Assembly (NCBI GenBank): GCA_963976765.1
Contig: CAXBME010000002.1
Coordinates: forward strand, 124,001-188,000
Origin: an uncultured Planctomycetaceae bacterium
GTDB taxonomy: Bacteria; Planctomycetota; Planctomycetia; Planctomycetales; Planctomycetaceae
Reading direction: 5' to 3'
DNA length: 64,000 nt
Positions 1 to 16,590 of this stretch are shown in pieces. The position numbers and the translations under genes are program-made. Within the stretch, counting starts at the first letter, position 1; the number at the start of each line of letters is the position of its first letter. Under the pieces are notes generated by a model, which was given only the letters and a program-made list of their open reading frames with translations, was not told the DNA's origin and did no database searches.

Positions 1-158
1 CGAGCAATGCTGAGTTGCGATTCGAGCTTGTCAGTATTCCCGATCAGTGCCGGCAGACTGGGCGTTGCCAGCGAAGACTGATGAGCCGCTTTGTGACATC
101 CCGATGCAGCGATGATCGTCAGCATCGCCAATGATAGACAGCCAGCAAATTTCTTCAT
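1..158 (-). CDS. 5' part of a lipoprotein running off the left edge, possibly TPR-containing (TadD-like)
   Basis: ATG at 158 opens MKKFAGCLSLAMLTIIAASG-C HKAAHQSSLATPSLPALIGNTDKLESQLSIAR: basic N-terminus, hydrophobic stretch and lipobox. It is co-oriented downstream of the secretin. TPR identity is a guess from context. Confidence 0.6.
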   Translation of the reverse strand, partial: MKKFAGCLSLAMLTIIAASGCHKAAHQSSLATPSLPALIGNTDKLESQLSIA

Positions 159-168
159 CGTAGTTACC

Positions 169-209
169 AATCCATGGCTTCGTTGAAGTTCCTCTCGCAG
201 CCGTCCCTG
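169..209 (-). promoter_or_regulatory. Putative CsrA/RsmA-type binding sites (ANGGA in hairpin loops) in the leader of the edge lipoprotein gene
   Basis: Minus strand shows gcc-AGGGA-cggc inside the stem ctctcgc..gcgagag, and cc-ATGGA-ttgg just upstream of the ATG at 158. Confidence 0.45.
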
Positions 210-355
210 GCAGCGAGAGATATCATTCTTTTCGTACTTGCCCGGCATGTTGATTCAGAAAAAAAGAGGCTTTGCTCCGGAAAATCGGCTTCCGAAGCAA
301 GGCCTCAACTGAATCGCCTATTGTGAACTCGCGATTGGCAAATCGCTCGCATTCG

Positions 356-946
356 TCAGCGGCCAAGTCCCCCACCGAGTCCGCCACCGACTCCACCGCT
401 CCTTCCGCCGAGTCCGGAGTTCCCGCCACCAAAGCCTCTGAGACTCTGGTAGTAAACGGCTTCGCCTTCGACCTGCTCGTAACCGGGTGTCAGTGCCGGG
501 CCGATGACGACTTTGTTTTCGACATCCTTCGCACCCAGCTCGATCAGAGTATGGACGAGAACTTCGCGACGTCGTTGATCAAGTGCCGGATCGTTATGGA
601 CGGCGAAGCTGTGGACATCACCTTCCCGGGTGCTCATCGAGCTGGACTGAATAATTACGGGATACCCGTTTTCGTCCATCCGAGCAGCTATCTGCCGAAC
701 ATGGGACTCGCCCTTGGCATTAAGCACCGAAGTATTTCCCCGAAACTCGTGTTCGTGGACCACGAAGTCAGAAGCTTCCGCATTCGCTTCCTGGAGCTTC
801 CAGGCTTGATCGCTGTAGGCTCCCAGTGGAATCGGATCGGTCGGTTGCATGTAGGCACATTTGTCTTTGCAGCAGCCGACCGTCAGCAGGGCAAGTAACC
901 CGCAAGTCGCTGTTGGCATCAGACGAGCCCGTTTCAGAATCGGCAT
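356..946 (-). CDS. Lipoprotein in the secretin operon (positional analogue of CpaD/pilotin), Gly-rich tail
   Basis: Lipobox LTVG-C, AAGGA SD upstream, and position directly downstream of the secretin. The C-terminus is GFGGGNSGLGGRSGGVGGGLGGGLGR. Confidence 0.65.
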   Translation of the reverse strand: MPILKRARLMPTATCGLLALLTVGCCKDKCAYMQPTDPIPLGAYSDQAWKLQEANAEASDFVVHEHEFRGNTSVLNAKGESHVRQIAARMDENGYPVIIQSSSMSTREGDVHSFAVHNDPALDQRRREVLVHTLIELGAKDVENKVVIGPALTPGYEQVEGEAVYYQSLRGFGGGNSGLGGRSGGVGGGLGGGLGR

Positions 947-1111
947 TGTCTGTTTTCCTTATTTGATGGTGCCAGCGTGAAATCGATCGAGTCACTTTTC
1001 GGCACACTACGGTGAAGTTGTTCCAGTCGTCGGCCCACTCGCCTTCCGGGATGACTCTGCCACTGTTGAGAAGTTGACGAAGGCCAGCCCGGCATCAGCA
1101 ATCAAGTGAGA

Positions 1112-2731
1112 TTACTTCGAAAACCCATTGTTGCCGTGAACGTAGTACTGTTGAGATTTATTGATCGCTTCGAACTCGTCCTTGCAGCGGCAGTTGCGGT
1201 TCTTGAAGAGCGGCCACACGGTGCTGCGATGGTGGAATCCTGGTCGGCCTTCGATGTCCCCGTAGATGAAGAAGTCAACATCATCCGGCTCGGTGACTTC
1301 CATGCCAGGGAGAATCGTTGGAGCCTCGTGAGATTCCATCGGGTGAACCAGCTCGGGGCTGACCAGAATCAGCAGTTCCGTTTCGTCTCGTGAAACAACC
1401 TTCGTTTCAAACAGTGGTCGCAACAGCTTTGTGTCACCCAGCAGTGGAACGCGAGTCGAATCCCCTCGCTGCTGTTCCTGCAACAGGCCAGCAATGGCCA
1501 GTACCTGTCCTTCACGCAGTTCCACAGTCGTGTTTACTGAGCGAGTATCGACTCCGAAAATTCCAGCAACCGAGTTCGCTGAATTAAGAGTGCTGAAGCT
1601 CGGTGAAACGTTCAGACGAATCCGATCGTTGTCCAGGACCGTCGGGCTGAAACTCAACTGAGTACCAAACCCTTTGAACGTTGTTGTTGATGCCTGAGCA
1701 CCACCGACTCCGACGACGGTTGGCACCGCAAACTGGCCCCCCGAGATGAAATCAGCAGTCTGACCGCTGAGCACGACGAGGTTTGGCTCCGCCAGAATCT
1801 TTGCGTTGCCGTTGCCGGTCAGAGCTTTCAGAGCGAGCGAGAACGAATCATCGTTGAACGTTCCTGTCGCCATAATGTTGCCGCTGCCAGCAAGAGCCGA
1901 ACCCAGCATCAGGTCGCCCACATCGAAGTTGAAGTCGGCCCCGAGTTGTCGAATCGCCGATCGCTTCAGCTCGGCAATTCGAACTTTCAGCATCACCTGC
2001 TTCTCACCGGGAATCCTCAACAGGCTCACGACCTGAGCCACAGGAAGCTCACTGGCGTCCGGAAATGGCTCGGCTGCTGTGCCGGCATTGCCAACACCAA
2101 AGCCCCCGAGCGAACTCTGGACAGGAGTGGCATTTTCCCGCAGCAGAGACATAATCTTTGATGCTTCCTGCTCGTCGCGAACCTGGCCGCGAACGATCAG
2201 TTTGTCGGCGATCGGGATCAACTGAATCCGACTGTTCGGAAACATCTCGTTGATCATTTCCTGAAGTTCGCCGTACTCAAGACGTCGGCGATCTTCGATG
2301 CTGTCGTCTTTTTCAACATTGACAACCAGGCTCAAATGATGCGGGTTGTCCTCATCGCCGAGCCAGAAGGTGACTGTTGTGCTGCCCGATTCTTTTCCGA
2401 TCAGCTCGACTTCGCGAGTCCCGAAGGCCACGATTTCGATGACCGACGGATCAGCGATCGCGGCTCGAAAGATGGGCTGCTTCATTCGCAGAATCTTTGA
2501 ACGGCGAAGCGGGACATCCAGCTCGGCCTCCTGCTGGACAATCTCGTCGACGAGACTCCCAACTTTCTCGGCCAGTTGCGATGACGCGACCGGACGCACG
2601 GGAGGAAGAACTACCGCACGCCCCGACTGAGCGGACGCCGTGTGGCAACTCGGACCAAGCAGACCGGCTGCCATGATCCCAGGCAACCAGAGTCGACTGA
2701 ACGTTTTTCGTTTGAAAAGGCAAGAAAGCAT
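1112..2731 (-). CDS. cpaC: Flp/Tad-type secretin (CpaC/RcpA family)
   Basis: N-terminal pilus-formation domain (RAAIADPSVIEIV..LIGKESGSTTVTFW), BON-like segment (LIVRGQVRD), and secretin domain motifs QVMLKVRIAEL, KILAEPNLVVLSGQTADFISGGQFAVP, TTVELREGQVLAIAGLL, ETELLILVSPELV. The ORF extends to 2761; ATG 2731 chosen. Confidence 0.9.
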   Translation of the reverse strand: MLSCLFKRKTFSRLWLPGIMAAGLLGPSCHTASAQSGRAVVLPPVRPVASSQLAEKVGSLVDEIVQQEAELDVPLRRSKILRMKQPIFRAAIADPSVIEIVAFGTREVELIGKESGSTTVTFWLGDEDNPHHLSLVVNVEKDDSIEDRRRLEYGELQEMINEMFPNSRIQLIPIADKLIVRGQVRDEQEASKIMSLLRENATPVQSSLGGFGVGNAGTAAEPFPDASELPVAQVVSLLRIPGEKQVMLKVRIAELKRSAIRQLGADFNFDVGDLMLGSALAGSGNIMATGTFNDDSFSLALKALTGNGNAKILAEPNLVVLSGQTADFISGGQFAVPTVVGVGGAQASTTTFKGFGTQLSFSPTVLDNDRIRLNVSPSFSTLNSANSVAGIFGVDTRSVNTTVELREGQVLAIAGLLQEQQRGDSTRVPLLGDTKLLRPLFETKVVSRDETELLILVSPELVHPMESHEAPTILPGMEVTEPDDVDFFIYGDIEGRPGFHHRSTVWPLFKNRNCRCKDEFEAINKSQQYYVHGNNGFSK

Positions 2732-2739
2732 CCTGGTTC

Positions 2740-2859
2740 TCCGTCCGTGGATTGAGCCCAAATCTGGTTGAGCCTGCCGTGAGGCCGTTAAATGAAGGTC
2801 TGAAACGAACGTCCCTGCCCGCTGACGTCGACATAGCCTTCCAAACGGCCACGTCCTTG
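2740..2859 (-). promoter_or_regulatory. Three cANGGAcg motifs (putative CsrA/RsmA sites) in the secretin 5' leader
   Basis: Plus-strand cgtccgtg 2742-2749, cgtccctg 2810-2817 and cgtccttg 2852-2859. At least two lie in hairpin loops (tcc-ACGGAC-gga; cgggc-AGGGAC-gttcg). Confidence 0.55.
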
Positions 2860-3509
2860 ACTGAAAAGCACAGGCAACTCGAAAAAAATTCGAAGTCGCG
2901 TCGTGCCTTCACTTCTTCAGTTTCTCGATGAACCGGACAGCTGAAGAGCCAACTCTCCCAGACGCACAAACAATCGTGTTTGAGCCTTCCCGCGCCGATC
3001 CTGCATTTGTTATCGGGTAGTCCGGTTGTGAGGACACAATGGAATGGTCCGTATTCGACGCTCACGGGTACTCCTGCGACGCTCACAGAGAATAGGTAAG
3101 GTAGGGACGCGTCGTAGATTTTTCGGGCTGCCGCTCGACAGGTCAGTTGATCGGCCAATCGGCTAGTTACTTAAGTATTCGCTGACCTGTTCTCAGTTCC
3201 CGGCCTTGGACTCCGTTGCTCAAGTACGCAGCGAGCCATCTGGCAACCAGGCACCGGCAGGAGTGATCGCTGAAATCGTCAAGCTTCACCTGGCTTCGCC
3301 CGCTGTCGCGGCCTGTCGGCGGATTCTGCGATCACGGTCCCCGGCGTCAGGAAACCCACTTCCGTCGGCTCGTTCATGCAATACTCTGTCGGACAGCGGC
3401 GGCTTTGCTGCGACGCGACATCGACCATGCAAAACGCGGGAGCCACGACGACCACACCCGCTCACCCGCCGCCCTTTTGCGTCAACTTCATTTTCAGCCG
3501 GTAACGCCC

Positions 3510-5126
3510 ATGCGAAATCCAGATTTCATCACTTCGTTCTCGCGGGTCTCACGAGCTACCCTCGGCCTGTCGCTTGCTGGTTGCGTGCTCGCGACAGGTT
3601 CGGCGACCTGCCTGGCACAGAAGCCGGACTCGTCACAGGTCGAGTTCGACCCGACGGCAGAATTACCGATGTCCATTATGAAAGGGACGAAGCCGGCAAC
3701 GATGGCAGACACTCAGTTTGCCGGTGCAGAATCCGAAACATTCGTCACGATTGCGCCGAATTCAAACTCACCGAATTCAAGCGGTCACCAACCAGACACT
3801 TCGACGGCGAACAACGCCGCTGTTCGCAAAACAGCGCTATCAGACGCTGAATCCGCGCCCCCTCCTGCGGCGGTTGCAACCAAAGCACCATTCCTTAACG
3901 GAGCCCGCCAAACGGTTCTGGCGAGTCAGCCAGTTCTGATTGTCGCCTCCGCACCTGGTTCCAGAGTCGTCGTCGGCAACTCGGTTTCGGTCCAGACGAA
4001 GCCCCCTGCACCGCTTTCAAAGCGAACGCTTTCGCAGATCGACCAGTTAACCACCCGGCTTGTCAGTCAGAGTCGGGATGCCTGGTTGCGAGGTTTGATG
4101 GATCAGGCGTCGTACGCAGCGTGGCTCAACGTGGCATCGACGACGCAACTGCAAATCGCTTCGCACCAGGGCGACCGAAACCGGGCGATGCTCGTGCTGC
4201 AGGAGCAGGTTGCTCTTTGGGCGGAAGCGGCCAGCGAGCTGGAATCGTTCAACCAGCCGGGAGCCGAGGGCTGGGAAGCCGACCTGTCACACTCGCGTGT
4301 TATGGCGTTGCGGGCAGAGCTGCGTTACAGCGTCGCTGCCGGTCGCAAGCTGACGAACGATGACCAGCAGGCTTACGCTCAGCTTGCCGCCCAGCATCTC
4401 GACCTTCGTCTGCACGACTTCCAAACGGGAACCGGCACCGCGGCGGCCGTTCTGGCAGCAGCAACCATGGTGGACGAGCAGATCGTCGTTTCTCAGCAGG
4501 CCAGCGAACCCTCTGGTTCAAACGCGACCTTTGTAGTGCCAGACTTTCGGGTCGACCGCCCTTCCGCGATTCGCGCGGCACTGGCGGAAATTCGACGACC
4601 GGTCCATCTCGAAACTTACCCGTTCGCAATTTCAACGCGGGACCTTGCCGAAGACAGACAGGCTGTACGGCGTGCTGCAAGCTTCGCCGCTTTCGCCGGT
4701 GCTCCCGCCGACGTTCGAGCATCGGGTGCTTTTCTGACAGACCTTGAGCAGCATGCTGAGGAAATCGCTGCCCAGCAATTTGCCAGACTCCAGACCGGAA
4801 CCGCCACACCAGGCGGAATGCTTCGAGATTGGTGGCAGCAGGAATCGATCGCCACCGGCTTGCAGGAAGAACTCTCTGAAACGGCTTTCTACACCGGGCA
4901 GACGCAAAGGCTGCTGGCGATCCATCAGGTCGCTGCTGCGACGACCGACCTTCGTGGTCGAAACGCTGCCGACGTCGCGGCGGCGGAAATGCTGGTTGCC
5001 GTACGGCAGCTGGATCTCAAACCAGTGTCGAGCAAAAAGAAGCCTGTTCCGTATGCGAAAACGTCGACGGGATCAGAGGCGCTGGTTATCGAGTACAAAA
5101 AGAACGAGGCGACCACTGGGCAATAG
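3510..5126 (+). CDS. Secreted helical hypothetical protein with TolC/OEP-like repeated motif
   Basis: Signal-peptide-like N-terminus (LGLSLAGCVLATGSATCLA), Ser/Ala/Pro-rich linker, then an Ala/Leu/Gln helical region with FQTGTGTAAAVLAA and LQTGTATPGGML. The ORF opens at 3405. Confidence 0.65.
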   Translation: MRNPDFITSFSRVSRATLGLSLAGCVLATGSATCLAQKPDSSQVEFDPTAELPMSIMKGTKPATMADTQFAGAESETFVTIAPNSNSPNSSGHQPDTSTANNAAVRKTALSDAESAPPPAAVATKAPFLNGARQTVLASQPVLIVASAPGSRVVVGNSVSVQTKPPAPLSKRTLSQIDQLTTRLVSQSRDAWLRGLMDQASYAAWLNVASTTQLQIASHQGDRNRAMLVLQEQVALWAEAASELESFNQPGAEGWEADLSHSRVMALRAELRYSVAAGRKLTNDDQQAYAQLAAQHLDLRLHDFQTGTGTAAAVLAAATMVDEQIVVSQQASEPSGSNATFVVPDFRVDRPSAIRAALAEIRRPVHLETYPFAISTRDLAEDRQAVRRAASFAAFAGAPADVRASGAFLTDLEQHAEEIAAQQFARLQTGTATPGGMLRDWWQQESIATGLQEELSETAFYTGQTQRLLAIHQVAAATTDLRGRNAADVAAAEMLVAVRQLDLKPVSSKKKPVPYAKTSTGSEALVIEYKKNEATTGQ

Positions 5127-5180
5127 TCGCTCGAATTCCGCTGTAAGAATTCAGTTGTAAAAATTGCGCTGTAATTAACG

Positions 5181-5226
5181 AAACAACGAGCACGGTCGAT
5201 TTGACGACTTCGTGCTCGTTGTTTTC
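5181..5226. terminator. Bidirectional intrinsic terminator
   Basis: 14-bp inverted repeat aaacaacgagcacg / cgtgctcgttgttt between convergent genes. Confidence 0.75.
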
Positions 5227-5287
5227 TGCTCGTTTCACTCGCGGAGTTTTCAGCTCACAACCCGACGAGTGACCGATGTTGTGTTGC

Positions 5288-6373
5288 TCAGGCAGCCTCA
5301 GCCAGTTCGGACACTGGCTCTGACTTATGAAGTCGGAACTGGTCCCACTGATTGGCTGGCATGCTCATCGCCAGTTTCAAGGCTCCGGCTGCTCCGGCGA
5401 AGACGGAGTCGCCGACCTTGCGAACCTTTCCGCCGCCGTACGCTTCCAGCGACTGTTCGATCAGACGATCGAGGCCGTTCAACTGGCTGCCGCCACCAGC
5501 CAGAATGATGTTTGAAAGCATGGCTCGTCGGAATTCAGGATCGAATCGACTGATCACTTCCCGCAGACCTTCGATGATTGGTTCAACGATTGTCAGGCAG
5601 GCTTCTTTCAGCGGGCCAGAAACGTCGAACTCGGTCGGTCGAGCTTTAACGTCCAGCCTCGCGATGGCCTTTTCGTCAATGTCATGCACGAAACCGTATT
5701 TCTCTTTCAGCTCGCGAGCAATGTTCGGCGACAGTTCCGCTTCAGGAAACTGCTCGCCCATCAGACGCATGAAAGCTTCGTCGACAAAGTCTCCGCCCAG
5801 TGGAACAGTTACCTGATCTTCGTCGGTCGGGTAGGTCGAGTACAGCGGGCAGATGTCGATCGTGCCGGCTCCGATGTCGATCACCAGTGCGTCCGTGAGA
5901 GCGTTCATTCCGTAAGCGACGGTGAACGGCTCCGGGGCGATGACGACGGCATCAAAGGCGTCGCTGGCAACGTCCATGATGAACTTCTTATTGATGATGC
6001 TGGCTCGCGACGGAGCACCGATCACGCCATAGACAGGGGCTCCCGGTTTAGGTCGAGTCAGCTCGACGGCGTGTTTGATCAGCAGTCGAGCGGCTTCGGT
6101 ATGCTCGGCAACTTTCTCCTGGGCAACGCCGGACTCCGCAGAATCAAGATACTTCAGCGCTCCGCGTTCGAACGGGCGGCAGACTTTAAGAGCGAGTCGC
6201 TTCTCGACGACGTCTTTGCCAAACACAACGTCTCGACCAAGGATGGCCCGGGCGACGTGGTCTTTCGGCCAGCCGACGGCACTGAAAAGTGAGTCTCGAG
6301 TTCCGTTCGAACTGACAACCGACGTTTTGAAGGTTCCAAGGTCCATTCCGATAAATGCGGGCTGACTATCCAT
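5288..6373 (-). CDS. MamK-like actin ATPase (MreB/MamK superfamily)
   Basis: Actin motifs GMDLGTFKT, EPFTVAYG, IDIGAGTIDIC, NIILAGGGSQ. MamK-like features include VGWPKD..LGR, VIGAPSRAS..NK, EDQVT and GALKLA..P..W. Confidence 0.88.
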   Translation of the reverse strand: MDSQPAFIGMDLGTFKTSVVSSNGTRDSLFSAVGWPKDHVARAILGRDVVFGKDVVEKRLALKVCRPFERGALKYLDSAESGVAQEKVAEHTEAARLLIKHAVELTRPKPGAPVYGVIGAPSRASIINKKFIMDVASDAFDAVVIAPEPFTVAYGMNALTDALVIDIGAGTIDICPLYSTYPTDEDQVTVPLGGDFVDEAFMRLMGEQFPEAELSPNIARELKEKYGFVHDIDEKAIARLDVKARPTEFDVSGPLKEACLTIVEPIIEGLREVISRFDPEFRRAMLSNIILAGGGSQLNGLDRLIEQSLEAYGGGKVRKVGDSVFAGAAGALKLAMSMPANQWDQFRLHKSEPVSELAEAA

Positions 6374-6505
6374 TTCAGTTGGTGCTCCAGGTTAAGTAAC
6401 AGAGACGCCCGGTCTCGTAGTCCACGTCCCGACAATCAGGGTATGAATTCCGGGTAAAGTGTGCCTTTAAGAAAATCGAATCTCGTGCTGCAGCTGCGCG
6501 CCAAG

Positions 6506-7906
6506 TCAGGCCGCAGCGCGGCTGGCACCGATTTCATTGTGCAGCGAAACATTGTTCTGAATAAACTGCTCCAGGATCGCTGACTCGCGCTGGCGAGCAC
6601 GTTGCTCACTCAGAGACAGAATCCCTTCGAAGTCAGGATCGATTTTCAATTCATTGGTTGCTGCCGACTGAGCGGGTGCCGCTGCCGGAACCGCTCCGGC
6701 AGTCTGAATTGTCAGCGGGCTGTTGTTGACCAGTTCAATTCTGAAGGCGACGCCCTTTTCACCAATCAGTTTTTTGCCGACAGCCAGAATCGCCAGGAAC
6801 AGGAATAACGCCCCGAAAAACAGCACGGCAAAGATCGTCGTCAGCGTTGCCAGAACGTCAAACGTCAACGCTCCGAGGGGTGAGGCCGCTGGAGCTGCCG
6901 CTCGTTGATCAGTGATGATGAGCGGTCGCGGCTCGACCTGCTGAATCGGTGCGACTTGCGTTGAAGCAGCAAATTCGGCTGAGGACTCTGAGACCTGTCG
7001 GTGCGTGTCGACGTTCAGTCGACGAGGCTCGTCGTCTGTTGAACTCGCGAAGGTCGGCTCTGAGTGATACGGTTGGATGGCCGGAAAGCTTAATGGTTGA
7101 TTATCTTCAATCCGAGATGCAGATACGGTTTCGATCTGGCTTGTGTCTGTGTCACTTTCCACCTGAGCGGCCAGTGTCACCGCATCGGCTGACGGATTTT
7201 CGCTCGGCGCAAAAGCCGGGCTGCTCGCCGGACTACTTGTCAGTGCTGGTTTCCAGACACCGATCGTTGTGTTCTGGTCAACACCTGAGTTCGTGGTGTT
7301 GGCCGAGTTGATTCTGCTGATGGCTTCGCGACGGGCAGAAGCCATAAATGTCGGATCGTTGGCGAGCGCTTCCAGTCTGGTCAGGAGTTCTTCGGGAGAC
7401 TGTTCGCCCTGCTCCCATTTCACCGGGTAGGAGTAGGCCAGTCGGGCGGAAATCAGAGCACGGCGAAGGTCGCCGGCGAGAAAATACTCTTCCGCTTCTG
7501 CCAGGACTTTCTTTGCCTGGCTCTTTGCATCGTCGGCGGCCCCTGAAGAAGCATGACTTGAAGTCTTCTGCTGAGGCCACTCAAGCACCAGGCCACCGTT
7601 GCTTCGCTGAGTCCGAACCGGTTCCAGAGAACGATCGGTCGAACCCGAAACACCACCGGTTGCGTTGGCACCACCCGCGGCCTGTTGAGTAGATCTGTCG
7701 CCAGGCTCAGACATCCGGTCGCTTGACGACTGAACCTTCGACCGTCCGAAGTCCATAATCAGCGGTTTGACATCAGCAACGATGTTTCGTGGCGACTGCC
7801 AGATCATCAGCGTCGCAAAACCTGCGAACACAGCAGCCAGCGCCGCCACAGGTAAGGGTGCTCTGCCGAAAAATTGTCTGAACATGATGTTTTTATGGCC
7901 GGGCAT
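6506..7906 (-). CDS. Two-TM membrane protein with TPR-like helical hairpin and long disordered linker, upstream of the actin
   Basis: Hydrophobic segments PVAALAAVFAGFATLMIW and VLATLTTIFAVLFFGALFLFLAILAV. Helical motif AKKVLAEAEEYFLAGDLRRALISARLA..W..GEQSPEELL, and a charged C-terminal helix. Confidence 0.75.
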   Translation of the reverse strand: MPGHKNIMFRQFFGRAPLPVAALAAVFAGFATLMIWQSPRNIVADVKPLIMDFGRSKVQSSSDRMSEPGDRSTQQAAGGANATGGVSGSTDRSLEPVRTQRSNGGLVLEWPQQKTSSHASSGAADDAKSQAKKVLAEAEEYFLAGDLRRALISARLAYSYPVKWEQGEQSPEELLTRLEALANDPTFMASARREAISRINSANTTNSGVDQNTTIGVWKPALTSSPASSPAFAPSENPSADAVTLAAQVESDTDTSQIETVSASRIEDNQPLSFPAIQPYHSEPTFASSTDDEPRRLNVDTHRQVSESSAEFAASTQVAPIQQVEPRPLIITDQRAAAPAASPLGALTFDVLATLTTIFAVLFFGALFLFLAILAVGKKLIGEKGVAFRIELVNNSPLTIQTAGAVPAAAPAQSAATNELKIDPDFEGILSLSEQRARQRESAILEQFIQNNVSLHNEIGASRAAA

Positions 7907-8303
7907 GTGGAGACTCGACTGTTAAAGGTCGTAAGCGAATAAAACGGCCCCGATGACGCGACTTACCTCGCAGAATGTGCGCTACAGGTCAGGTATCGAC
8001 TTTTCCGATTACGACAGTTGAATCAGATGATCCTGTTTTTCTGAAAACTACGAATGTACCACCTCGTCTGAATCAGCATTTGAGCCGCCTCTATTCCATC
8101 TGTTTTTGACAAACCCGAAAACAAGCGAGCAGAAAACTGGAATGAAACATCGACCGAATTCGCGCTGTCCGCTTCCAGGTTCCGAACCATCCACATCAAC
8201 GTTTCGTGGCAAGCTGATCCGGCATTGACGGATTTGCCAGTAGTCCGTCTTTTGCGACTCGCAACGCACGCAATGATTGTTTTGCAACGATCATCTGAAA
8301 CAG

Positions 8304-8318
8304 TGGCACGAGTCGAGC
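8304..8318 (+). promoter_or_regulatory. Possible sigma-54 -24/-12 promoter
   Basis: TGGCACG-agtc-GAGC has GG-N10-GC spacing, 130 nt upstream of the Cys-rich gene. The -12 box is imperfect. Confidence 0.3.
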
Positions 8319-8448
8319 CAGTCCTCACGCATGGCAGGACTGATGACGATTAACCCTGCAGCGTGGTCGATGCCAGGGCAGCATCAGTTTCCGACGCTTG
8401 AATCATCGTCCTGAACCGGGACCTGGCAGCCCCAGGAGAAAACAAATC

Positions 8449-9081
8449 ATGATCAGAACAATCGCTTGTTGCGTCGCGGCCCTCGCCATGACGGTCGGAA
8501 CGTTGTCCGCAGAAATCTACAATCCAGCGGTTCCGGGAGTTACTTCCAGCAGCTCGTGCGGCTGCAACGCTGGCGGACCAGGGCAGTCGTTCGGCGTCTG
8601 CCAGTCCTGCCCGTCAGGTATCTGCCAGAGTGGTCCGATTCCGGGTGGAATTTCGTTTGGTGGAAGCTGCCCGACCTGCCCATCGTCGTACTCACACATG
8701 GGTAACTGCCCGCACGGTGGCAACTGCCCGAATCCCGGTTCATGCCCGTCCTGCCAGTCGTCGCACTGTTCACTGGGCTGGTGCATGAAGACGGGGCTGT
8801 GCTGTCTCGACAACCCTTGCCAGATGCCGCCGCACTACCCGTACGCACCGGTTAACCACGGCAATTACTACTTCGCACCGTACAACTACACGAAACTTCT
8901 GCAGCAGAAGGCGTATGCTCAGATGCAGAATCAGGATCCCCGTCAGCCCTACATCGCCGGAACGTTCGCTTCGTCCTACAAGGCGGTCATCGGCGATCGC
9001 GAAGACGGTGACTTCGAAGAAAATGTCGTGCAGCCGACGAAAGGTTTGCCCGATCTGGAGGTGATCCTGGGGGTTAAGTAG
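8449..9081 (+). CDS. Secreted Cys/Gly/Pro-rich hypothetical protein
   Basis: AGGAG SD, ATG 8449 and signal peptide MIRTIACCVAALAMTVGTLSA. There are 16 Cys in the mature region (CQSC, CPTC, CPSC), followed by the Tyr-rich MPPHYPYAPVNHGNYYFAPYNY. Confidence 0.8.
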   Translation: MIRTIACCVAALAMTVGTLSAEIYNPAVPGVTSSSSCGCNAGGPGQSFGVCQSCPSGICQSGPIPGGISFGGSCPTCPSSYSHMGNCPHGGNCPNPGSCPSCQSSHCSLGWCMKTGLCCLDNPCQMPPHYPYAPVNHGNYYFAPYNYTKLLQQKAYAQMQNQDPRQPYIAGTFASSYKAVIGDREDGDFEENVVQPTKGLPDLEVILGVK

Positions 9082-9671: not shown

Positions 9672-12600
9672 ATGGTGATGTCGAGCTGGCTGGCGGGGTG
9701 GGTGGGACGCGTTGGTCGGAACTCGGGTGGTGGGCGCTGGATCGGTGTTCTAGAGGGAGCCGGCAATCGAGGCAGTGGTCGCAACAGTCGGTCGAGGCGG
9801 CGGCGGAATTCGGGGTGGTCGGTGGCGGCGGCGGAGGTTTCGTCGGTCGTCGAGGTTTGTGAAGCTCGCGTCCTGCTGTCAGCCGTGACGCCGGTGATTT
9901 CTCAGTCGCAGGCTCAGACGGACGTCACCAACGCTCAGGCTGGTTACAACAGCGCGGTCGCGACTTACCAGACGTCATCTCAGGGCGCGGTTGATGGGTA
10001 CAGCCTGGCGATGCAGGGGCACTACTCCACCTTTTCGAGCAACGTCACCACGCTTGGCGGAAGCTATGACACCGCAGTGCAGGGAATTCTGGCGACGCAT
10101 TCCGGGAATGTTCAGAGTTTGCAGACCAGCTTTGATCTCACTGTCGCGGGTCTGGTTTCCGGCCTGGAAGGCAACTATGCCTCGTCCGAAGCCACGTACA
10201 GCACGGCGACGACCGGTCATTACAACACGTACAGTTCCGCGATGTCGTCGATCGAGTCCGGGCTGAACTCGCAGATCGCCACGGCTGACGGAATTCTGAA
10301 CTCGGCGACGACGGCGGCGTACAGCCAGTTCTCCGGAACCGAGAGCACGGCATCCGGTCAGTACGACACGGACATCGCGACTGCCGACGGCAATTACAAC
10401 ACGGCGGTGGCCGGTCACGATGCGTGGTTGCAGAGTCAGGAAGCCGCAGCGTTTGCCACGTACGACGGTCTTGCTGGCGACAATCCGACCGGAGCGATGG
10501 GGGTTTACAACTCGATCGAAAGCACCGAATCGGCGACTCGCGACGGCGTGCTGACTTCTTATCCGAACTCGACGTACGACCCGATGAGTGTCAGCTCGAT
10601 CGATTTCAATGCGTTGTGGAATACGGCTCTCAGCGGCGTGCAGACTTCGCTGACCACGGCGGAAACGAATTACCAGGCCGCGATCAGCGCCGCAGAATCT
10701 GCCTACCAGACGGGTCTGAGCAACGCTTCGTCGACGTACAGCTCGATGATGGCGACCGCTGATTCCGATCGTGACTCCGACTACGCCACCGCCGACGGAA
10801 CCTACAACACCAACACGTCGTCGGACTGGAACGACTACAACACCGCCGTCTACGGGGCAGGCGGCATTGAAGAAACGTGGCAGAACTCGATCAATACGGC
10901 AGACTCGACATACAGCAACAGTGTCAGCATCGCGATGGCCGCGTACGACTCGACCATGCAGAGTGCGCAGGCGACTCTGGACGGCGACATCGCCGCCGCT
11001 TATCAGAAGTTCGATGACTGGCAGAGTGGAAACCTTGTCGTTGCCGGCGCACCTCTGGGCCAGTCGATCACGATGTCGTTCGAGCGGACTCAGACAATCG
11101 ACACCTCAACCTCACCGGTAACCGTCTATTGGACTACTTCCAGCAGTCTGCTATGGGGTCTGGCTGAGGGGACGTCGACACTGTCCAGGTTCGAGGAAAA
11201 ACCACCGGTCCCGGATGGCTACACATTTACCAATTCATCCATTTCTGTTTCCGGCTCGGTGACAACCATCACTGAGACATACGCCCCGCCGGTGGGTGGG
11301 CTTGGCACCGGGCTGAGGCCGGGGCTTCAGCAGGCGAATGCTGCCGTCCTGACGCCGGCTCATCACAATCCGTGGGAGCTGGCGAAAGTCGCTCGCACCG
11401 AGTTCTACCTCGCAGAACTCGACGGCTACTACGACCAGTACACCGTCGCGATGAACACCGCTCAGACGATTTATAACGGAGCCGTGCAGGCCGCCAACGC
11501 CGGCTACAACACAACTCTGTACGGCGATCCGACCGGCATAACCATTGCTCCGGGAACTCCGGCCGAAACGTTCAACAGCGCGCTCACTGCCGCCTACAGC
11601 GCGTTCGACAGCGGCGAGCAATCGGCGAAGTCGAACTACGACACGAACATCAACGGCTACTACATGGCCGAGTCGCAATACTGGATGGACATGATGATGG
11701 GCATCCCGGCGACCCCGCCCAACCCGGACGATCCCGCTCAGTTTGCGAAGGACTACTACATTGACACGACCGCTCTGGACATCGACTTTGCCGTCGCGGT
11801 GGGGGCGGCGTGGACCGGTTGGGTGTCGGCTCAGGTTGGTGCGGACACGACTCGGGACAACGCGCTGATCAGCGCGGAGCATCAACTGGGACTCGACTCG
11901 GCCAACGCGGCGAACGCTCTGACGACGGCTCAGATCGCTGCGGAAAGTTCCTACGCCAAAGACATGATCGACATCAACGCTGACTACGCGATCGCCATCG
12001 CCGAGAAATTAGCCGAGGTTCAGGGCGACATCGCCGATGCGGAAAAGAACTTCGAACTGACCGAGCACGGCGCCGCTCAGACCGCGGGCAAAGCCATCAA
12101 CGCGGCGGAGAAAGTTCGAGAAGACGACTACGCCACTGCCGACGAGACTCGCGCTGAAGCGCTGTCGCTCGAAGACGAAGATCTCGCCAACGACCTGGCT
12201 GCCGAGGAAGAAACTCGCCAGAACGCCTACGCCACCGCCGATGCCGACTGGCTGTCCGACGAAGCCGCGGCGAACATTGCCTCAACGGCTCTGGCGGCGA
12301 CGGCGACCAGCGGCTTTCTGACCGGGCTGGTCGCTGCCGATGTCGGATTCGTCACCGCCGCCGCTCCGCTGATCACCACCGCGACGCAGGCGTTCAACAA
12401 TCTCGTCGATGCTGCCTACGTCGCCGCGTTCCCTGGCGACGCGGATCAGGCTGCCGTCTCGGGAGCGTGGACGACCTACTACAACGCGATGGTCACCGCC
12501 GCTCAAAACGCGTTGACTTCAGAAGCGACCGCTTACCAGTCCTACATCGGCAGCATGGCGACGGACATTCAGACGACAATGAACAACGTCGCGGGCGAAT

Positions 12601-13892
12601 CCACTCAACTGGCCACCGACTATGGCAATGCCCTTTCCGCCTACGTCAGCAGCGTCGCCGCCGCCGCGACTCTGCACACCAGCCAGGTTGCCGCTGCCGG
12701 AGTCGTCTGGGTCGACTCGGTCGCCACCGATACCAGAAACGCAATCCACTCCGCCACCGCCGCCTGGAAGCAAATGGCCGACGACGATGTCGACGCCGCG
12801 AAAACTCTGGCCGACGACTACTCGAACTTCTGGAACGGCTTCGCCCACAGCTACCTGGCCGCCGCCGTCCCTCACGAAACCGCCGTCATCAACGAAGACC
12901 GCCAGGCTTCCAAAGACGCCGACGACGAACTCACCACCCTCGCCCAGGGAATCGCCGCCGAACAGCACGACCTCAACCTCGACGACCTGGCCGAATGGCT
13001 GTCTACGGCGTTGTCCCTGTCCTCCCTCGACGACGCCCTGATCAACGCCTGGGCCACGCTGGAATCTGCCTGGAGCATCATCTCCGCCTGGGACTACCAC
13101 ACCTACACCCAATCCGCCCCCCTGTCCGACTTCGCCTACTACTGGGGAGTCAGCGCCGGACCCATGACCGGATTAAACCACAACCTCGACCTCGCCGGCG
13201 GAAACGACGACGTCGTTCAACAGGCAGCCCTCGCGGCGACATCACAAGGCAGCTCATGGAGTTCCTGGTTGCCGTGGAACTGGTCTGTTTTCTCCTGGAG
13301 AGAGACGCCTCGCCCTCTGAACGGTGCGACACGCATGGGCGAGCAGCAAGGTCTTGCGAATAATTGGAAAGTACGCCGGGATTTGATGCTCGAAACCGGC
13401 AAAGATGTCAGTGGTTTGCAGGCGGCTACCGCAACCGCTGGCGGCCTTGGCGGTGCAGCGCTTGATCACGCGGAATCGGCGGCAGTTGATCTTACGCTTC
13501 ATTTAGCTGGTGCAGGATCGCTTAAATACGGCGACGATTTGATTGACCTTGCGCGTAGCACACGACGACTCCCAAATGTGTTGGATGGAGGCGAAGCGTA
13601 CCGATCTTTTTCGGCTCTCAAACGAGCCTTGGGGGCAGCAGGAGAAAATAAACACTGGCATCACATCGTTGAGCAGTCTCAGATTGGACAGTTCGGCACC
13701 GCACTGATTAACAATACGAAGAACGTTGTCGCACTGGATGCGGGGATTCACGCAAAAATCAGTGGTTATTTCAGTTCGATACAAGACTTCTCTAATGGAT
13801 TGACTGTGCGACAGTGGTTGTCTGGAAAGTCATTCGAGGAGCAATATCAGTTTGGACTAAATGTTATACAACGATTTACTACCGGTCTTTGA
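9672..13892 (+). CDS. Large secreted polymorphic-toxin-like protein: planctomycete leader, hendecad helical stalk, C-terminal HNH-fold nuclease
   Basis: Leader RSRRRRN..VEVCEARVLLS (LEPR-XLL/Planc_extracel-like) and 11-residue aromatic periodicity. The C-terminus FSALKRALGAAG..WHHIVEQ..N..N..L...H..IS..SS...TVRQWL..SFEEQ is a His-metal nuclease pattern. The 3' end is AT-richer. Confidence 0.8.
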   Translation: MVMSSWLAGWVGRVGRNSGGGRWIGVLEGAGNRGSGRNSRSRRRRNSGWSVAAAEVSSVVEVCEARVLLSAVTPVISQSQAQTDVTNAQAGYNSAVATYQTSSQGAVDGYSLAMQGHYSTFSSNVTTLGGSYDTAVQGILATHSGNVQSLQTSFDLTVAGLVSGLEGNYASSEATYSTATTGHYNTYSSAMSSIESGLNSQIATADGILNSATTAAYSQFSGTESTASGQYDTDIATADGNYNTAVAGHDAWLQSQEAAAFATYDGLAGDNPTGAMGVYNSIESTESATRDGVLTSYPNSTYDPMSVSSIDFNALWNTALSGVQTSLTTAETNYQAAISAAESAYQTGLSNASSTYSSMMATADSDRDSDYATADGTYNTNTSSDWNDYNTAVYGAGGIEETWQNSINTADSTYSNSVSIAMAAYDSTMQSAQATLDGDIAAAYQKFDDWQSGNLVVAGAPLGQSITMSFERTQTIDTSTSPVTVYWTTSSSLLWGLAEGTSTLSRFEEKPPVPDGYTFTNSSISVSGSVTTITETYAPPVGGLGTGLRPGLQQANAAVLTPAHHNPWELAKVARTEFYLAELDGYYDQYTVAMNTAQTIYNGAVQAANAGYNTTLYGDPTGITIAPGTPAETFNSALTAAYSAFDSGEQSAKSNYDTNINGYYMAESQYWMDMMMGIPATPPNPDDPAQFAKDYYIDTTALDIDFAVAVGAAWTGWVSAQVGADTTRDNALISAEHQLGLDSANAANALTTAQIAAESSYAKDMIDINADYAIAIAEKLAEVQGDIADAEKNFELTEHGAAQTAGKAINAAEKVREDDYATADETRAEALSLEDEDLANDLAAEEETRQNAYATADADWLSDEAAANIASTALAATATSGFLTGLVAADVGFVTAAAPLITTATQAFNNLVDAAYVAAFPGDADQAAVSGAWTTYYNAMVTAAQNALTSEATAYQSYIGSMATDIQTTMNNVAGESTQLATDYGNALSAYVSSVAAAATLHTSQVAAAGVVWVDSVATDTRNAIHSATAAWKQMADDDVDAAKTLADDYSNFWNGFAHSYLAAAVPHETAVINEDRQASKDADDELTTLAQGIAAEQHDLNLDDLAEWLSTALSLSSLDDALINAWATLESAWSIISAWDYHTYTQSAPLSDFAYYWGVSAGPMTGLNHNLDLAGGNDDVVQQAALAATSQGSSWSSWLPWNWSVFSWRETPRPLNGATRMGEQQGLANNWKVRRDLMLETGKDVSGLQAATATAGGLGGAALDHAESAAVDLTLHLAGAGSLKYGDDLIDLARSTRRLPNVLDGGEAYRSFSALKRALGAAGENKHWHHIVEQSQIGQFGTALINNTKNVVALDAGIHAKISGYFSSIQDFSNGLTVRQWLSGKSFEEQYQFGLNVIQRFTTGL

Positions 13893-13911
13893 AGGATGTA
13901 ATTACAAAGCC

Positions 13912-14259
13912 ATGAATAATCAATTCGAATGCGATTTGCTGTCAAAATATGTTTCAAAAGTGATCGCCCAGAGCGTGGCACTTGAAGAAGGAGACTCTAC
14001 CAGAGCCAATAGACTGTACCGTGATGTGTCGAAGTTGTTTGAACAGATTGTCAGTGAAGGGTGCCGCCATAAGCTCTTAGAGCTATTGGACCATGAAGAG
14101 CCGGTCGTTCGTTCCAAGGCAGCCTTTCACTCGCTATCGATCGATCCATCAAAGGCAGAATCGACCTTGGAAGCTGTTTCGCAAGAGCCGGGAATCGTCG
14201 GTTTTAATGCTGGGATGACTCTGTCTGAATGGAGAAAAGGCAATCTCCAGGTTCCGTAG
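13912..14259 (+). CDS. Putative immunity protein (DUF2019-like, HEAT-type helical)
   Basis: Starts 20 nt after the toxin stop and is AT-richer. Motifs GDSTRANRLY, LLELLDHEEPVVRSKAA..L, AESTLE and AGMTLSEWRKG. Confidence 0.75.
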   Translation: MNNQFECDLLSKYVSKVIAQSVALEEGDSTRANRLYRDVSKLFEQIVSEGCRHKLLELLDHEEPVVRSKAAFHSLSIDPSKAESTLEAVSQEPGIVGFNAGMTLSEWRKGNLQVP

Positions 14260-14711: not shown

Positions 14712-16121
14712 TTACCAGTTCTTGGGATCGATGAACCAGAACCAGCGATCCGTCCGAGGGCGGAAGTTCAGGTTCCAGGCTCCGTCGTCCCATTCAAGTT
14801 GTACCTGACGCCATCCCAGTGGCACCTGAGGGTACGGGTAGAACGGGCCAATGTAAGGCCAGGCACTGGCACTGTACTCTTTCGGGTACGACACCTGAGC
14901 ATAGTTCGGGTAGGCCGCGTAGGTTGGCCATGAGTGGTTCGGCAGGTTTGGAAGATCGTACGCCAGGTGTGATGGATTTCCGCCGCCGTGAGCGTGAGGG
15001 CCAGCTCCTGGTCCCATTCCGCCCGGTCCCATTCCCATCGCCCCGGCAGCCATGCCGCCCATCGCTCCAGCAGCCATCATGGCCGGGTGAGGCTGACCGG
15101 GCATCTGATGGCTAACCGGCATCACATTCGGATTCGGCCCCTGAGGACCGGCTCCTGGAAATGCTCCGGGCTGACCAGGCATTCCGACGACCTGCAGACG
15201 ATTGTCGACTTCCAGAACTCCGGGAACGCTTGCGGCGACCTGGTGAGCGATCATCGCAACCTGTGGATGAGGCACAGGACCACTCAAAGTCGCCAGTCCA
15301 CCGTTGTAGCGAACTTCGATGTCCAGACCGCTGAGACGGTTGGCGGCCAGAGCCTGAGCAATCTGCTCAGCAACCCGCTGGTTCGTGCTGCCCGACGTTG
15401 TGCCTGAAACCTGCTGAATGGGCGAGCCCATACCGGGAGCCTGAAGCTGGTTGTTGACCTGTCGAACGCCCGGAACTCGCGAGATGACCTGAGTCAACCG
15501 GGCGACGTCCTGCGGCGACTGAGCTTTGCCCAGCAGTGTTGCCACTCCGCCTTTGTAGCGAAGGTCGATGTCATGACCTCGCACGCCAGACTGCTGAACC
15601 GCCTGAGCAATGCCCTGCGTAATCTGCTGGACCTGCTGTGGCGATTCGCCGGTTGCAGGCTGCGGAGTCGTCGCACGCTGTTCAGTCACCGTTGGTCGAG
15701 TCTGCGTCGGCCGTGAGAAGAATCCGGCCTGTTGAATCGGATTCGACTGGACGTCCTGAGCGACTGCCTGCTGGACAGGACGCTCAGCGCTGTCGCCGAG
15801 CACGGTCAGCCGATTGTCCACGGTGCGAATTCCCGGCACGCGGGAAATCACCTGCGTGGCCTGATCTTTCTGAGCCTGGCTGGCGATCTTGCCTTTCAAC
15901 AGGCAGACGCCGTTCTGAACTTCGAGTTCGATGTCGAAGCCCGAGAACTTTGCAGCTCGGAGGTTGGAAGCCGCCTCTTCGGCGAGCTTCTGGTTGTCTG
16001 AAGCGGCTGACTGCGGAACTGACTGGTCGGACTTCGAGAATGGAAATGGTCCAGCCAGTGCAATCCCTGGAGTCACCGCTGCGATCCCGAGTGACAGGAC
16101 CCACTTGCGATACGCCAGCAT
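14712..16121 (-). CDS. Triple BON-domain periplasmic protein with Pro/Gly/Met linker and aromatic C-terminal tail
   Basis: AAGGAG SD and signal peptide. Three repeats of DI....G.ATL.G.....VPGV..V.N.L, then the tail WPTYAAYPNYAQVSYPKEYSASAWPYIGPFYPYPQVPLGWRQVQLEWDDG. The ORF extends to 16190. Confidence 0.85.
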   Translation of the reverse strand: MLAYRKWVLSLGIAAVTPGIALAGPFPFSKSDQSVPQSAASDNQKLAEEAASNLRAAKFSGFDIELEVQNGVCLLKGKIASQAQKDQATQVISRVPGIRTVDNRLTVLGDSAERPVQQAVAQDVQSNPIQQAGFFSRPTQTRPTVTEQRATTPQPATGESPQQVQQITQGIAQAVQQSGVRGHDIDLRYKGGVATLLGKAQSPQDVARLTQVISRVPGVRQVNNQLQAPGMGSPIQQVSGTTSGSTNQRVAEQIAQALAANRLSGLDIEVRYNGGLATLSGPVPHPQVAMIAHQVAASVPGVLEVDNRLQVVGMPGQPGAFPGAGPQGPNPNVMPVSHQMPGQPHPAMMAAGAMGGMAAGAMGMGPGGMGPGAGPHAHGGGNPSHLAYDLPNLPNHSWPTYAAYPNYAQVSYPKEYSASAWPYIGPFYPYPQVPLGWRQVQLEWDDGAWNLNFRPRTDRWFWFIDPKNW

Positions 16122-16590
16122 GGATTGAATCTCCTTGTACGACCTTGATTCAGGTTTCACACAGCTTGTTTCAACCAGAGAGACAGCCACACAAGTCGCT
16201 GTCCGGAATTCTCCGGATGAAGCCGAGTCTTTGCATTTTGCAGTGCCGGAGACCTCTCAGCCGCCGACTTCCCCCGCGTTTTCAGCCGTGAAACGACCGA
16301 TAGGCAGGCGGACGAGCATTCGCACACAGAATGCTCTGCCTTTTCATCGGCCGAAGACGTCCGGTTAGATAAGCTTTTCTGGTTATCTCGGTCGAATCGG
16401 ATGATCTGATCGCAATCGTTCCGTAGATCACGGATGCTCGCAGCGTGCGGTCACCTCAGGACGATACGATGACTGGCCAGTTTCACGAGCCGGTTCGCGC
16501 CTGTCGAAAACCGCGCCGTTTGCCCGAAATATCGTCTGCAAGGTGGCCATGAGCGTTTCGCCGGCTGAGTCCGGTCATCGAGGTTTCAGA

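Follow-up and report, generated by a model that had tools for sequence, protein, structure and literature searches.

Bitopic membrane proteins can link actin-fold proteins of the bacterial cytoplasm to the envelope, as in the PilM-PilN pair of type IVa pili and the MreB-RodZ pair. In magnetotactic bacteria, a MamJ-like gene located directly upstream of mamK codes for the cognate adaptor of MamK (PMC10653835). Relatives of MamK in other bacteria include saltatorellin, a planctomycete actin that forms filaments in E. coli (10.1101/817700), and BeeR, which forms three-stranded tubes of unknown function (PMC11929497). Regarding the Tad (type IVc) pilus, Caulobacter CpaD is an OmpA-like lipoprotein, encoded directly downstream of cpaC, that belts the CpaC secretin (10.1101/2025.11.05.686773), and TadD is a TPR lipoprotein acting as pilotin (PMC10499894). 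Here, we analyse a stretch of 64,000 nucleotides (the window, C2:124001-188000) from the genome of an uncultured Planctomycetaceae bacterium (8.57 Mb, rated 100% complete), in which genes of a Tad outer-membrane module lie next to those for a MamK-like actin and a putative membrane anchor. This arrangement is real and conserved, and apparently undescribed; it combines a Tad pilus that is probably split with a MamK-like actin and a putative membrane anchor, both optional.

Three genes at the left end of the window, coding for a secretin, a lipoprotein with an OmpA-like fold and a TPR lipoprotein (Table 1), are the outer-membrane module of a Tad pilus. A first-pass annotation, made by a model from the nucleotide sequence, had called the secretin CpaC-type, which is upheld by its matches to PF00263 and PF13629 and by its best relative among solved structures, RcpA (8odn, E 4.7e-37). 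The OmpA-fold lipoprotein matched no Pfam or NCBIfam model and no CpaD/RcpB family model, and only one of 17 members of its family matched PF00691 (E 0.02). When a profile of these 17 members was compared with the PDB, RmpM (1r1m, E 2.2e-4) came first, along with a series of OmpA-like domains, and OmpA, Pal and MotB domains dominated two fold searches with the AlphaFold2 model (pLDDT 77.7; Z ~6, Foldseek E 3e-3 or weaker). Moreover, the gene sits directly downstream of the secretin gene, as that of CpaD/RcpB does relative to cpaC. In the ESM Atlas, this lipoprotein and the helical protein encoded beyond the secretin matched only unnamed Planctomycetota clusters. The lipoprotein family is present in 241 of 401 genomes of the class. 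At 20 of its loci, chosen by score and size of contig, a secretin gene was always adjoining, a TPR gene was found in 18 cases and further Tad genes within 10 kb in six. Complete clusters with pilin-like genes, CpaA, CpaB, CpaF, TadB and TadC surround orthologous secretins at loci L148 and L158.

Genes for a CpaF/TadA motor, TadB/TadC or CpaB were found neither at the locus nor in the 24 kb to its left, where reading of the open reading frames (ORFs) revealed no tad or flp genes, only proC-like, dehydrogenase, extracytoplasmic function sigma factor and similar genes as judged from their translations. Genome-wide searches for CpaA/B/E/F, TadB/C/E/G and pilin-like genes gave none inside the window, the first 16 kb of which were also read ORF by ORF, in agreement with the first-pass statement that tad genes are missing there. 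The genome contains four CpaC-type secretins (contigs C2, C3, C16 and C21) and four CpaF/TadB/TadC sets (C3, C14, C18 and C40). The set on C14 (C14:136516-143959) consists of four pilin-like genes, CpaB (RcpC), CpaF and TadB/C-like genes, and has no secretin. Its pilin-like genes are short, with a glycine followed by a hydrophobic segment at the N-terminus of their products, and none of those of this type that were scanned (from C14, L103 and L148) matched Pfam. In quick trees, the window secretin clusters with the secretins of L148, L158 and L102 (support 90), and the C14 CpaF with those of L148, L158 and L122 (SH-aLRT 99). Judging from these two trees, the C14 cluster is probably the cognate motor and pilin set of the window secretin. 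Since C14 has a matching cluster that lacks a secretin, we probably deal with a Tad system split between two loci and not with a machine devoid of a motor. CpaF was also detected in all ten other actin-positive genomes tested.

Further Tad-like genes of this genome are an array of at least 13 short pilin-like genes of the C14 type (G000:C30:90277-101559), a second orphan pair of secretin and OmpA-fold lipoprotein lacking an actin (L265, G000:C16:147654-150608) and a second secretin-less motor cluster (C18:39.9-47.7 kb), which may be the partner of that pair. The motors on C14 and C18 and the clusters of L148 and L158 have no CpaE, and a role of the actin as a substitute for CpaE/TadZ was considered. 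This idea was dropped because CpaE adjoins the motors in the actin-linked genomes G772 and G594, and most clusters without CpaE also lack the actin.

The actin of the window scored 361 bits with the MamK model NF040964 (cut-off 400), 196 bits with BeeR and 49 bits with MreB, and four relatives from its clade reach 332-389 bits with NF040964. It aligns over its full length to MamK, which is also its best solved relative (5jyg, E 2e-68), and its earlier designation as MamK-like is confirmed by these scores. All ATPase motifs of the MamK type are present (DLGT at 11, EPF at 148, DIGAGT at 166 and GGGS at 293, corresponding to phosphate 1, EP connect 1, phosphate 2 and adenosine). The actin gene is intact, with a conservation of 85-94% within the genus; a separate mreB-like gene is located at C2:13.7-14.8 kb, with neighbours read by eye as mreC, mreD and a penicillin-binding protein gene. 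MamK-like genes occur in 151 of 401 genomes across the phylum, in 26 of 401 in this class and in 30 of 301 in the family. In the actin tree, from which six partial or long-branch rows were left out, the Planctomycetia actins formed a clade of their own with 54 rows, apart from the relatives of other classes (SH-aLRT 100). Of the three mam families tested in the genome, MamP and MamM remained far below cut-off and MamI had no match, although the MamI control also matched nowhere. Mam neighbours were recognised at no Planctomycetia actin locus. NF040962 was discarded as a magnetosome marker, as the model proved unrelated to magnetosomes.

The first-pass annotation had proposed that the actin, through a membrane partner, positions or powers a secretin apparatus, and the partner, a putative anchor encoded directly upstream of the actin, is the best supported part of this proposal. 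It begins with a hydrophobic segment, continues with a periplasmic helical hairpin (aa 118-200), a disordered linker and a transmembrane helix (~aa 352-375), and ends in a cytoplasmic tail. Instead of the two transmembrane helices assigned at first, homologues make a signal or anchor segment plus one such helix more likely. Homologues upstream of actin genes share this architecture over lengths of 290-700 aa, and their tails end in an amphipathic helix with an invariant Asn. The tail motif was found upstream of the actin at 37 of 42 Planctomycetia loci and at 13 of 16 loci of other classes, where the partners with the motif have no transmembrane helix by hydropathy. A tail profile of 49 positions matched 23 of the 401 genomes of the class, all of them among the 26 actin-positive ones and always just upstream of the actin. 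Four of these 23 genomes were absent from the alignment; three actin-positive genomes were missed, and not one of the 375 actin-negative genomes matched. The 80 actin loci from metagenomes were not used in building the profile. Among the 63 of these with at least 500 nt upstream, the upstream gene matched the tail profile in 41 (the hairpin profile in one case), a looser pattern added eight, and 14 matched neither. At the metagenome loci, the tail pattern was present in 41 of 103 upstream candidate ORFs versus 6 of 1974 other ORFs. In addition, the motif was found in 602 cluster representatives and, among the matches listed with at least 250 aa, 82 of 89 have a transmembrane helix shortly before it. 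About seven copies of the hairpin are also present in the N-terminal part of a secretin of 1978 aa in this genome (L261, G000:C18:13790-19726; hhalign 96%), these repeats belonging to no Pfam family. The tail helix is a candidate motif for binding of the actin.

Several loci show variants of the pair. At L120 (G676:C1:6399-8030), two tandem anchor genes, both with the tail motif, precede a single actin. At L263 (G000:C11:38098-39240), the reading frame of an anchor paralogue runs from its tail into the final ~24 codons of a second actin. A single deletion took the conserved helix and nearly the whole of this actin gene, which is kept in relatives of the same genus. As this joint loss was one deletion, it is not independent evidence of co-evolution. 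The tail motif also ends the gene upstream of MamK-family genes at L235:412-939, L177:2137-3669 and L237:573-905, with weak profile scores (18.0, 8.7 and 2.9 bits), and these loci resemble magnetosome clusters, with a MamM-like neighbour in L177 and coiled-coil and HEAT-repeat genes in L235. Within the magnetosome operon of L195 (mamE-like, parA-like, acidic protein, mamK, mamM, mamN), there is a ParA-family gene. We do not claim homology of the anchor to MamJ, because the protein at the mamJ position of L195 lacks the tail motif; 15 members of the anchor family also had no NCBIfam match.

In order to relate the anchor-actin pair to Tad genes, we compared 59 Planctomycetia actin loci outside this genome, with flanks of up to ~10 kb per side; the secretin of L033 was added from its BLAST hit, and the short loci L007, L009 and L026 were left out. 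Co-localisation of actin and secretin in other genomes, on which the first-pass idea had been made to depend, was observed in other genera and families: Tad genes were present near 25 of the 59 loci, 15 of them with a secretin, seven with the lipoprotein only and three with pilin or motor genes only. When at least 5 kb were available on both sides, 17 of 37 loci were linked. The linked loci span 15 genus codes and three families (f1, f3 and f5). On the actin tree they occupy nine separate places, and at least 11 changes are counted. As a background, 1.25% of positions in the window's own genome have a secretin module no more than 10 kb away, and 5.8% any Tad-like gene of a generous list. Gene orders vary. 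The anchor and actin genes are followed co-directionally by secretin, lipoprotein and TPR genes at L110, and stand behind these three on one strand at L244-L246, whole strings of the latter kind being found in G914, G958 and G941. From L104 to L117, anchor, actin and lipoprotein genes are co-directional, with the secretin and TPR genes divergent or a few kb off. The pair adjoins pilins and CpaB at L103; at L254 the actin is co-directional with pilins, CpaB, CpaF and TadB/C, and G461 has a single cluster of actin, lipoprotein, TPR, secretin and motor genes. In G941, of another genus, ~16 kb hold homologues of all seven window genes and, besides, TadE/TadG-like, pilin-like and CpaA genes.

Several observations weigh against a functional connection between the pair and the pilus. 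The actin and secretin genes of the window belong to different operons. No Tad genes were detected at 34 of the 59 loci (20 of 37 where both flanks reach 5 kb or more), and one subtree of 15 rows in the actin tree is wholly unlinked, several of its members preceding a gene for a large secreted cyclophilin/RTX-repeat protein. Neither were they found at any of 80 metagenome loci, of which just two represent this clade with long flanks, nor at any of 16 loci of other classes, two of which had weak matches to non-CpaC secretins. The module lipoprotein is present in 241 of 401 genomes versus 26 of 401 for the actin, actin-negative genomes contain secretins 59-64% identical to that of the window, and G476 and G479 retain secretin, TPR and lipoprotein genes while anchor and actin are both gone. 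Furthermore, related genomes are not independent, so that the synteny could stem from few ancestral arrangements. The unlinked loci, and a module that is common without the actin, indicate that the actin is an accessory and that the anchor-actin pair has a life apart from Tad. Among the copies unlinked to Tad, those at L035, L036, L039 and L041-L044 precede a gene for a large secreted protein, a possible second cargo; the two such proteins scanned (L035 and L039) have cyclophilin and RTX-repeat domains.

Our preferred explanation, to which we give an even chance, is that the optional actin and anchor position, cluster or brace Tad pilus machines, with the motor of the module supplied in trans. 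The outer-membrane half would consist of the secretin pore, the OmpA-fold lipoprotein, which probably belts the secretin and ties it to peptidoglycan, the TPR pilotin and two secreted accessory proteins, and the pilins, CpaB, CpaF motor and TadB/C platform would probably come from the secretin-less C14 cluster. To judge from its relatives, the actin is expected to form ATP-dependent filaments. The inner-membrane anchor may bind the filament via its cytoplasmic C-terminal helix, much as MamJ links MamK to magnetosomes, and the periplasmic part of the anchor could reach envelope components. In this scheme CpaF, not the actin, would drive the pilus. Of the first-pass proposal, the membrane partner is thus retained as a constant upstream anchor and the link to the secretin as well, whereas powering by the actin is unnecessary because the apparatus is most likely an ordinary Tad pilus, with its pilins and motor probably encoded on C14. 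Nothing found points in particular to a stalk, a holdfast or a bud site, which had been offered as candidate apparatuses.

The main rival is co-regulation without contact, that is, the anchor-actin pair would be a self-standing cytoskeleton tethered to the envelope, serving polarity, shape or membrane organisation, and found near Tad genes through a shared life stage such as attachment. The pair is indeed far more constant than its link to Tad, given the 37 of 42 Planctomycetia and 13 of 16 other-class loci with the motif upstream; over half of the loci are unlinked, and one unlinked clade instead precedes the large secreted cyclophilin/RTX-repeat protein. Against this, the actin is in several cases wedged within Tad strings on the same strand and, at seven f5 loci, the lipoprotein gene, no other being found in the genome, is apart from its secretin and stands behind the actin. 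We regard this rival as possible, if doubtful. That the synteny is inherited or accidental, the outcome of a few ancestral insertions beside Tad genes carried along without function, would fit the patchy distribution of the actin (30 of 301 family genomes), the frequent loss of linkage and the fact that 13 of the 25 linked loci belong to one f5 clade. It is improbable, given a background of 1-6% and the spread of linked rows over nine places of the tree; these rows differ in gene order and in their Tad partners, which are the outer-membrane module for 22 and pilin or motor genes alone for three.

The boldest version of the first-pass idea, in which a motor-less secretin machine extrudes a fibre or stalk by actin polymerisation itself, could appeal to the lack of pilin, CpaB, CpaF and TadB/C genes at the locus and to secretin and actin sharing one strand in several genomes. 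We consider it slightly more improbable again, in view of the four CpaC-type secretins and four CpaF/TadB/TadC sets of the genome, with C14 as the phylogenetic match, the CpaF genes of the ten other actin-positive genomes and the orthologous secretins that reside within full Tad clusters at L148 and L158. A relic of a magnetosome gene cluster is suggested by MamK as the closest solved relative and by the tail pattern upstream of MamK-family genes in the magnetosome-like loci L235 and L177. With the negative mam searches in a genome rated complete, no mam neighbour at Planctomycetia loci and an actin gene that is intact and conserved across the genus, it is very improbable.

The seven genes described in the first-pass annotation were all found at the positions given there by ORF reading and translation, and strands and gaps agree with its four transcription units: TPR, lipoprotein and secretin genes (-), the helical protein gene (+), actin and membrane protein genes (-) and the small secreted protein gene (+). 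The intergenic gaps are, in this order of genes, 197, 165, 778, 161, 132 and 542 bp. Promoter and terminator scans stayed at chance level (counts of 3 versus 2.8 and 12 versus 11.0 expected).

Table 1. Features of the locus at the left end of the window (positions in the window).
Feature	Position	Strand	Basis and remarks
TPR lipoprotein gene, 5' end, TadD/CpaO-like	1..158	-	start at window 158, continues left to C2:123250, ~302 aa; lipobox-like signal; TPR families over cut-off
Lipoprotein with OmpA-like fold and Gly-rich tail, CpaD/RcpB-like by fold and position	356..946	-	196 aa; profile and AlphaFold2 fold searches
CpaC/RcpA-type Tad secretin	1112..2731	-	PF00263 131 bits, PF13629 49 bits, RcpA 8odn
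Secreted all-helical protein, accessory gene of this Tad type	3510..5126	+	AlphaFold2 model, homologue neighbourhoods
MamK-like actin ATPase, Planctomycetia clade	5288..6373	-	NF040964 361 bits; ATPase motifs; tree
Putative actin anchor, membrane protein	6506..7906	-	architecture as in homologues upstream of actin
Amphipathic helix at C-terminus of anchor, conserved (aa 439-462, Asn invariant); candidate for binding actin	6521..6592	-	two alignments
Small Cys-rich secreted protein, accessory gene of this Tad type	8449..9081	+	18 Cys in 210 aa; homologue neighbourhoods

The two secreted proteins encoded on the plus strand accompany the secretin module in actin-free genomes too. The helical protein has a core of 343 residues, modelled by AlphaFold2 as nearly all short helices (pLDDT 85.5, pTM 0.85). 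The TolC motif attributed to it earlier has to be abandoned, as model and fold searches show no TolC fold: as an outer-membrane factor it had no match to PF02321 or to any other Pfam family, and the chains of such factors among the matches listed aligned at TM-scores of 0.11-0.13 with a root-mean-square deviation of ~31 A. No clear known fold emerged from the fold searches, the best ones being helical toroids with Z up to 11.5, below the bar for helical proteins. Its homologues adjoin TadE/TadG-like genes at L143, L145 and L266. Homologues of the small Cys-rich protein, conserved in their aromatic C-terminal part, adjoin the secretin at L102, L144, L145, L147, L148, L150, L158 and L246, whether the actin is present or not.

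Further to the right, the window codes for a secreted low-complexity protein of 1406 aa (9672-14259, +) with a His-rich nuclease-like motif at its end, overlapped by an ORF of 132 aa with a weak DUF2019 match; its C-terminal 196 aa matched no Pfam family. The two look like a polymorphic toxin-immunity pair inserted here, because the relatives L027, L029 and L045 lack the pair at the same spot. A secreted protein with three BON domains (14712-16190, -) is also encoded near the locus in the same-genus relatives G004 and G007.

A literature search on MamK-like and actin proteins, planctomycetes and Tad pili, within which subscription papers fell outside the scope, gave no title or abstract describing the partner motif or an actin-Tad link; for a Gemmataceae genome, Tad genes are listed and MamK goes unmentioned in the part of the article available to us (PMC7397252). 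The MamK relatives outside magnetotactic bacteria, saltatorellin and BeeR, have no known cargo or partner. Our comparison adds a candidate partner, with a helix of ~24 residues as candidate binding site, encoded ahead of such actins in many lineages and, for one planctomycete clade, proposes the Tad pilus as candidate cargo. If confirmed, a type IVc pilus would here be served by a cytomotive filament. The secretin operon, at first sight an orphan, would also be accounted for as half of a split Tad system. More tentatively, we speculate that a membrane-spanning adaptor bridges the wide periplasm of planctomycetes and couples a dynamic MamK-type filament in the cytoplasm to Tad secretins, so that pili are moved or clustered as magnetosomes are by MamK-MamJ. 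The C-terminal helix might be an ancient general MamK-binding motif, joined in each lineage to cargo domains of another kind: those of membrane anchors in Planctomycetia, of partners in deep-branching magnetosome clusters and of soluble coiled-coil proteins elsewhere. This whole reading is rather unlikely; if true, the magnetoskeleton would be one use of a wider cargo-positioning system.

Compared with the known systems, the locus shares with PilM-PilN and MreB-RodZ the logic of an actin-fold protein combined with a membrane protein, but the PilM and MreB models remain far below cut-off and the cytoplasmic motif is C-terminal here. As with BeeR of Verrucomicrobiota, a MamK-related actin is present in a non-magnetotactic bacterium of the Planctomycetota-Verrucomicrobiota-Chlamydiota group; however, the window actin reaches 196 bits with the BeeR model NF053558 versus a cut-off of 530, and its fold starts at residue 6, without the N-terminal extension of 30-50 residues of BeeR. 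Saltatorellin is likewise a MamK relative from a non-magnetotactic planctomycete, and the other-class relatives (40-48% identical), presumably saltatorellin loci, also have the tail motif upstream. In contrast, the window actin belongs to a separate clade, and the other-class partners lack a transmembrane helix by hydropathy and are Tad-linked in 0 of 16 cases. The order of RcpA-type secretin, OmpA-fold lipoprotein and TPR lipoprotein is like RcpA-TadD of Pseudomonas aeruginosa and CpaC-CpaD-CpaO of Caulobacter crescentus, and orthologues of the window module accompany CpaA, CpaB, CpaF, TadB and TadC as in the Tad systems of these species. Unlike them, the module of this genome is probably split from its motor, no Tad model of Pfam fits its lipoprotein or the pilin-like genes, and the window carries actin and anchor genes, which are not mentioned in the available parts of the Tad papers compared. 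With respect to MamK-MamJ, no magnetosome genes exceeded the cut-off and the partner is here a membrane protein with a periplasmic part, whereas both systems have a MamK-like actin with a low-complexity partner of variable length encoded directly upstream.

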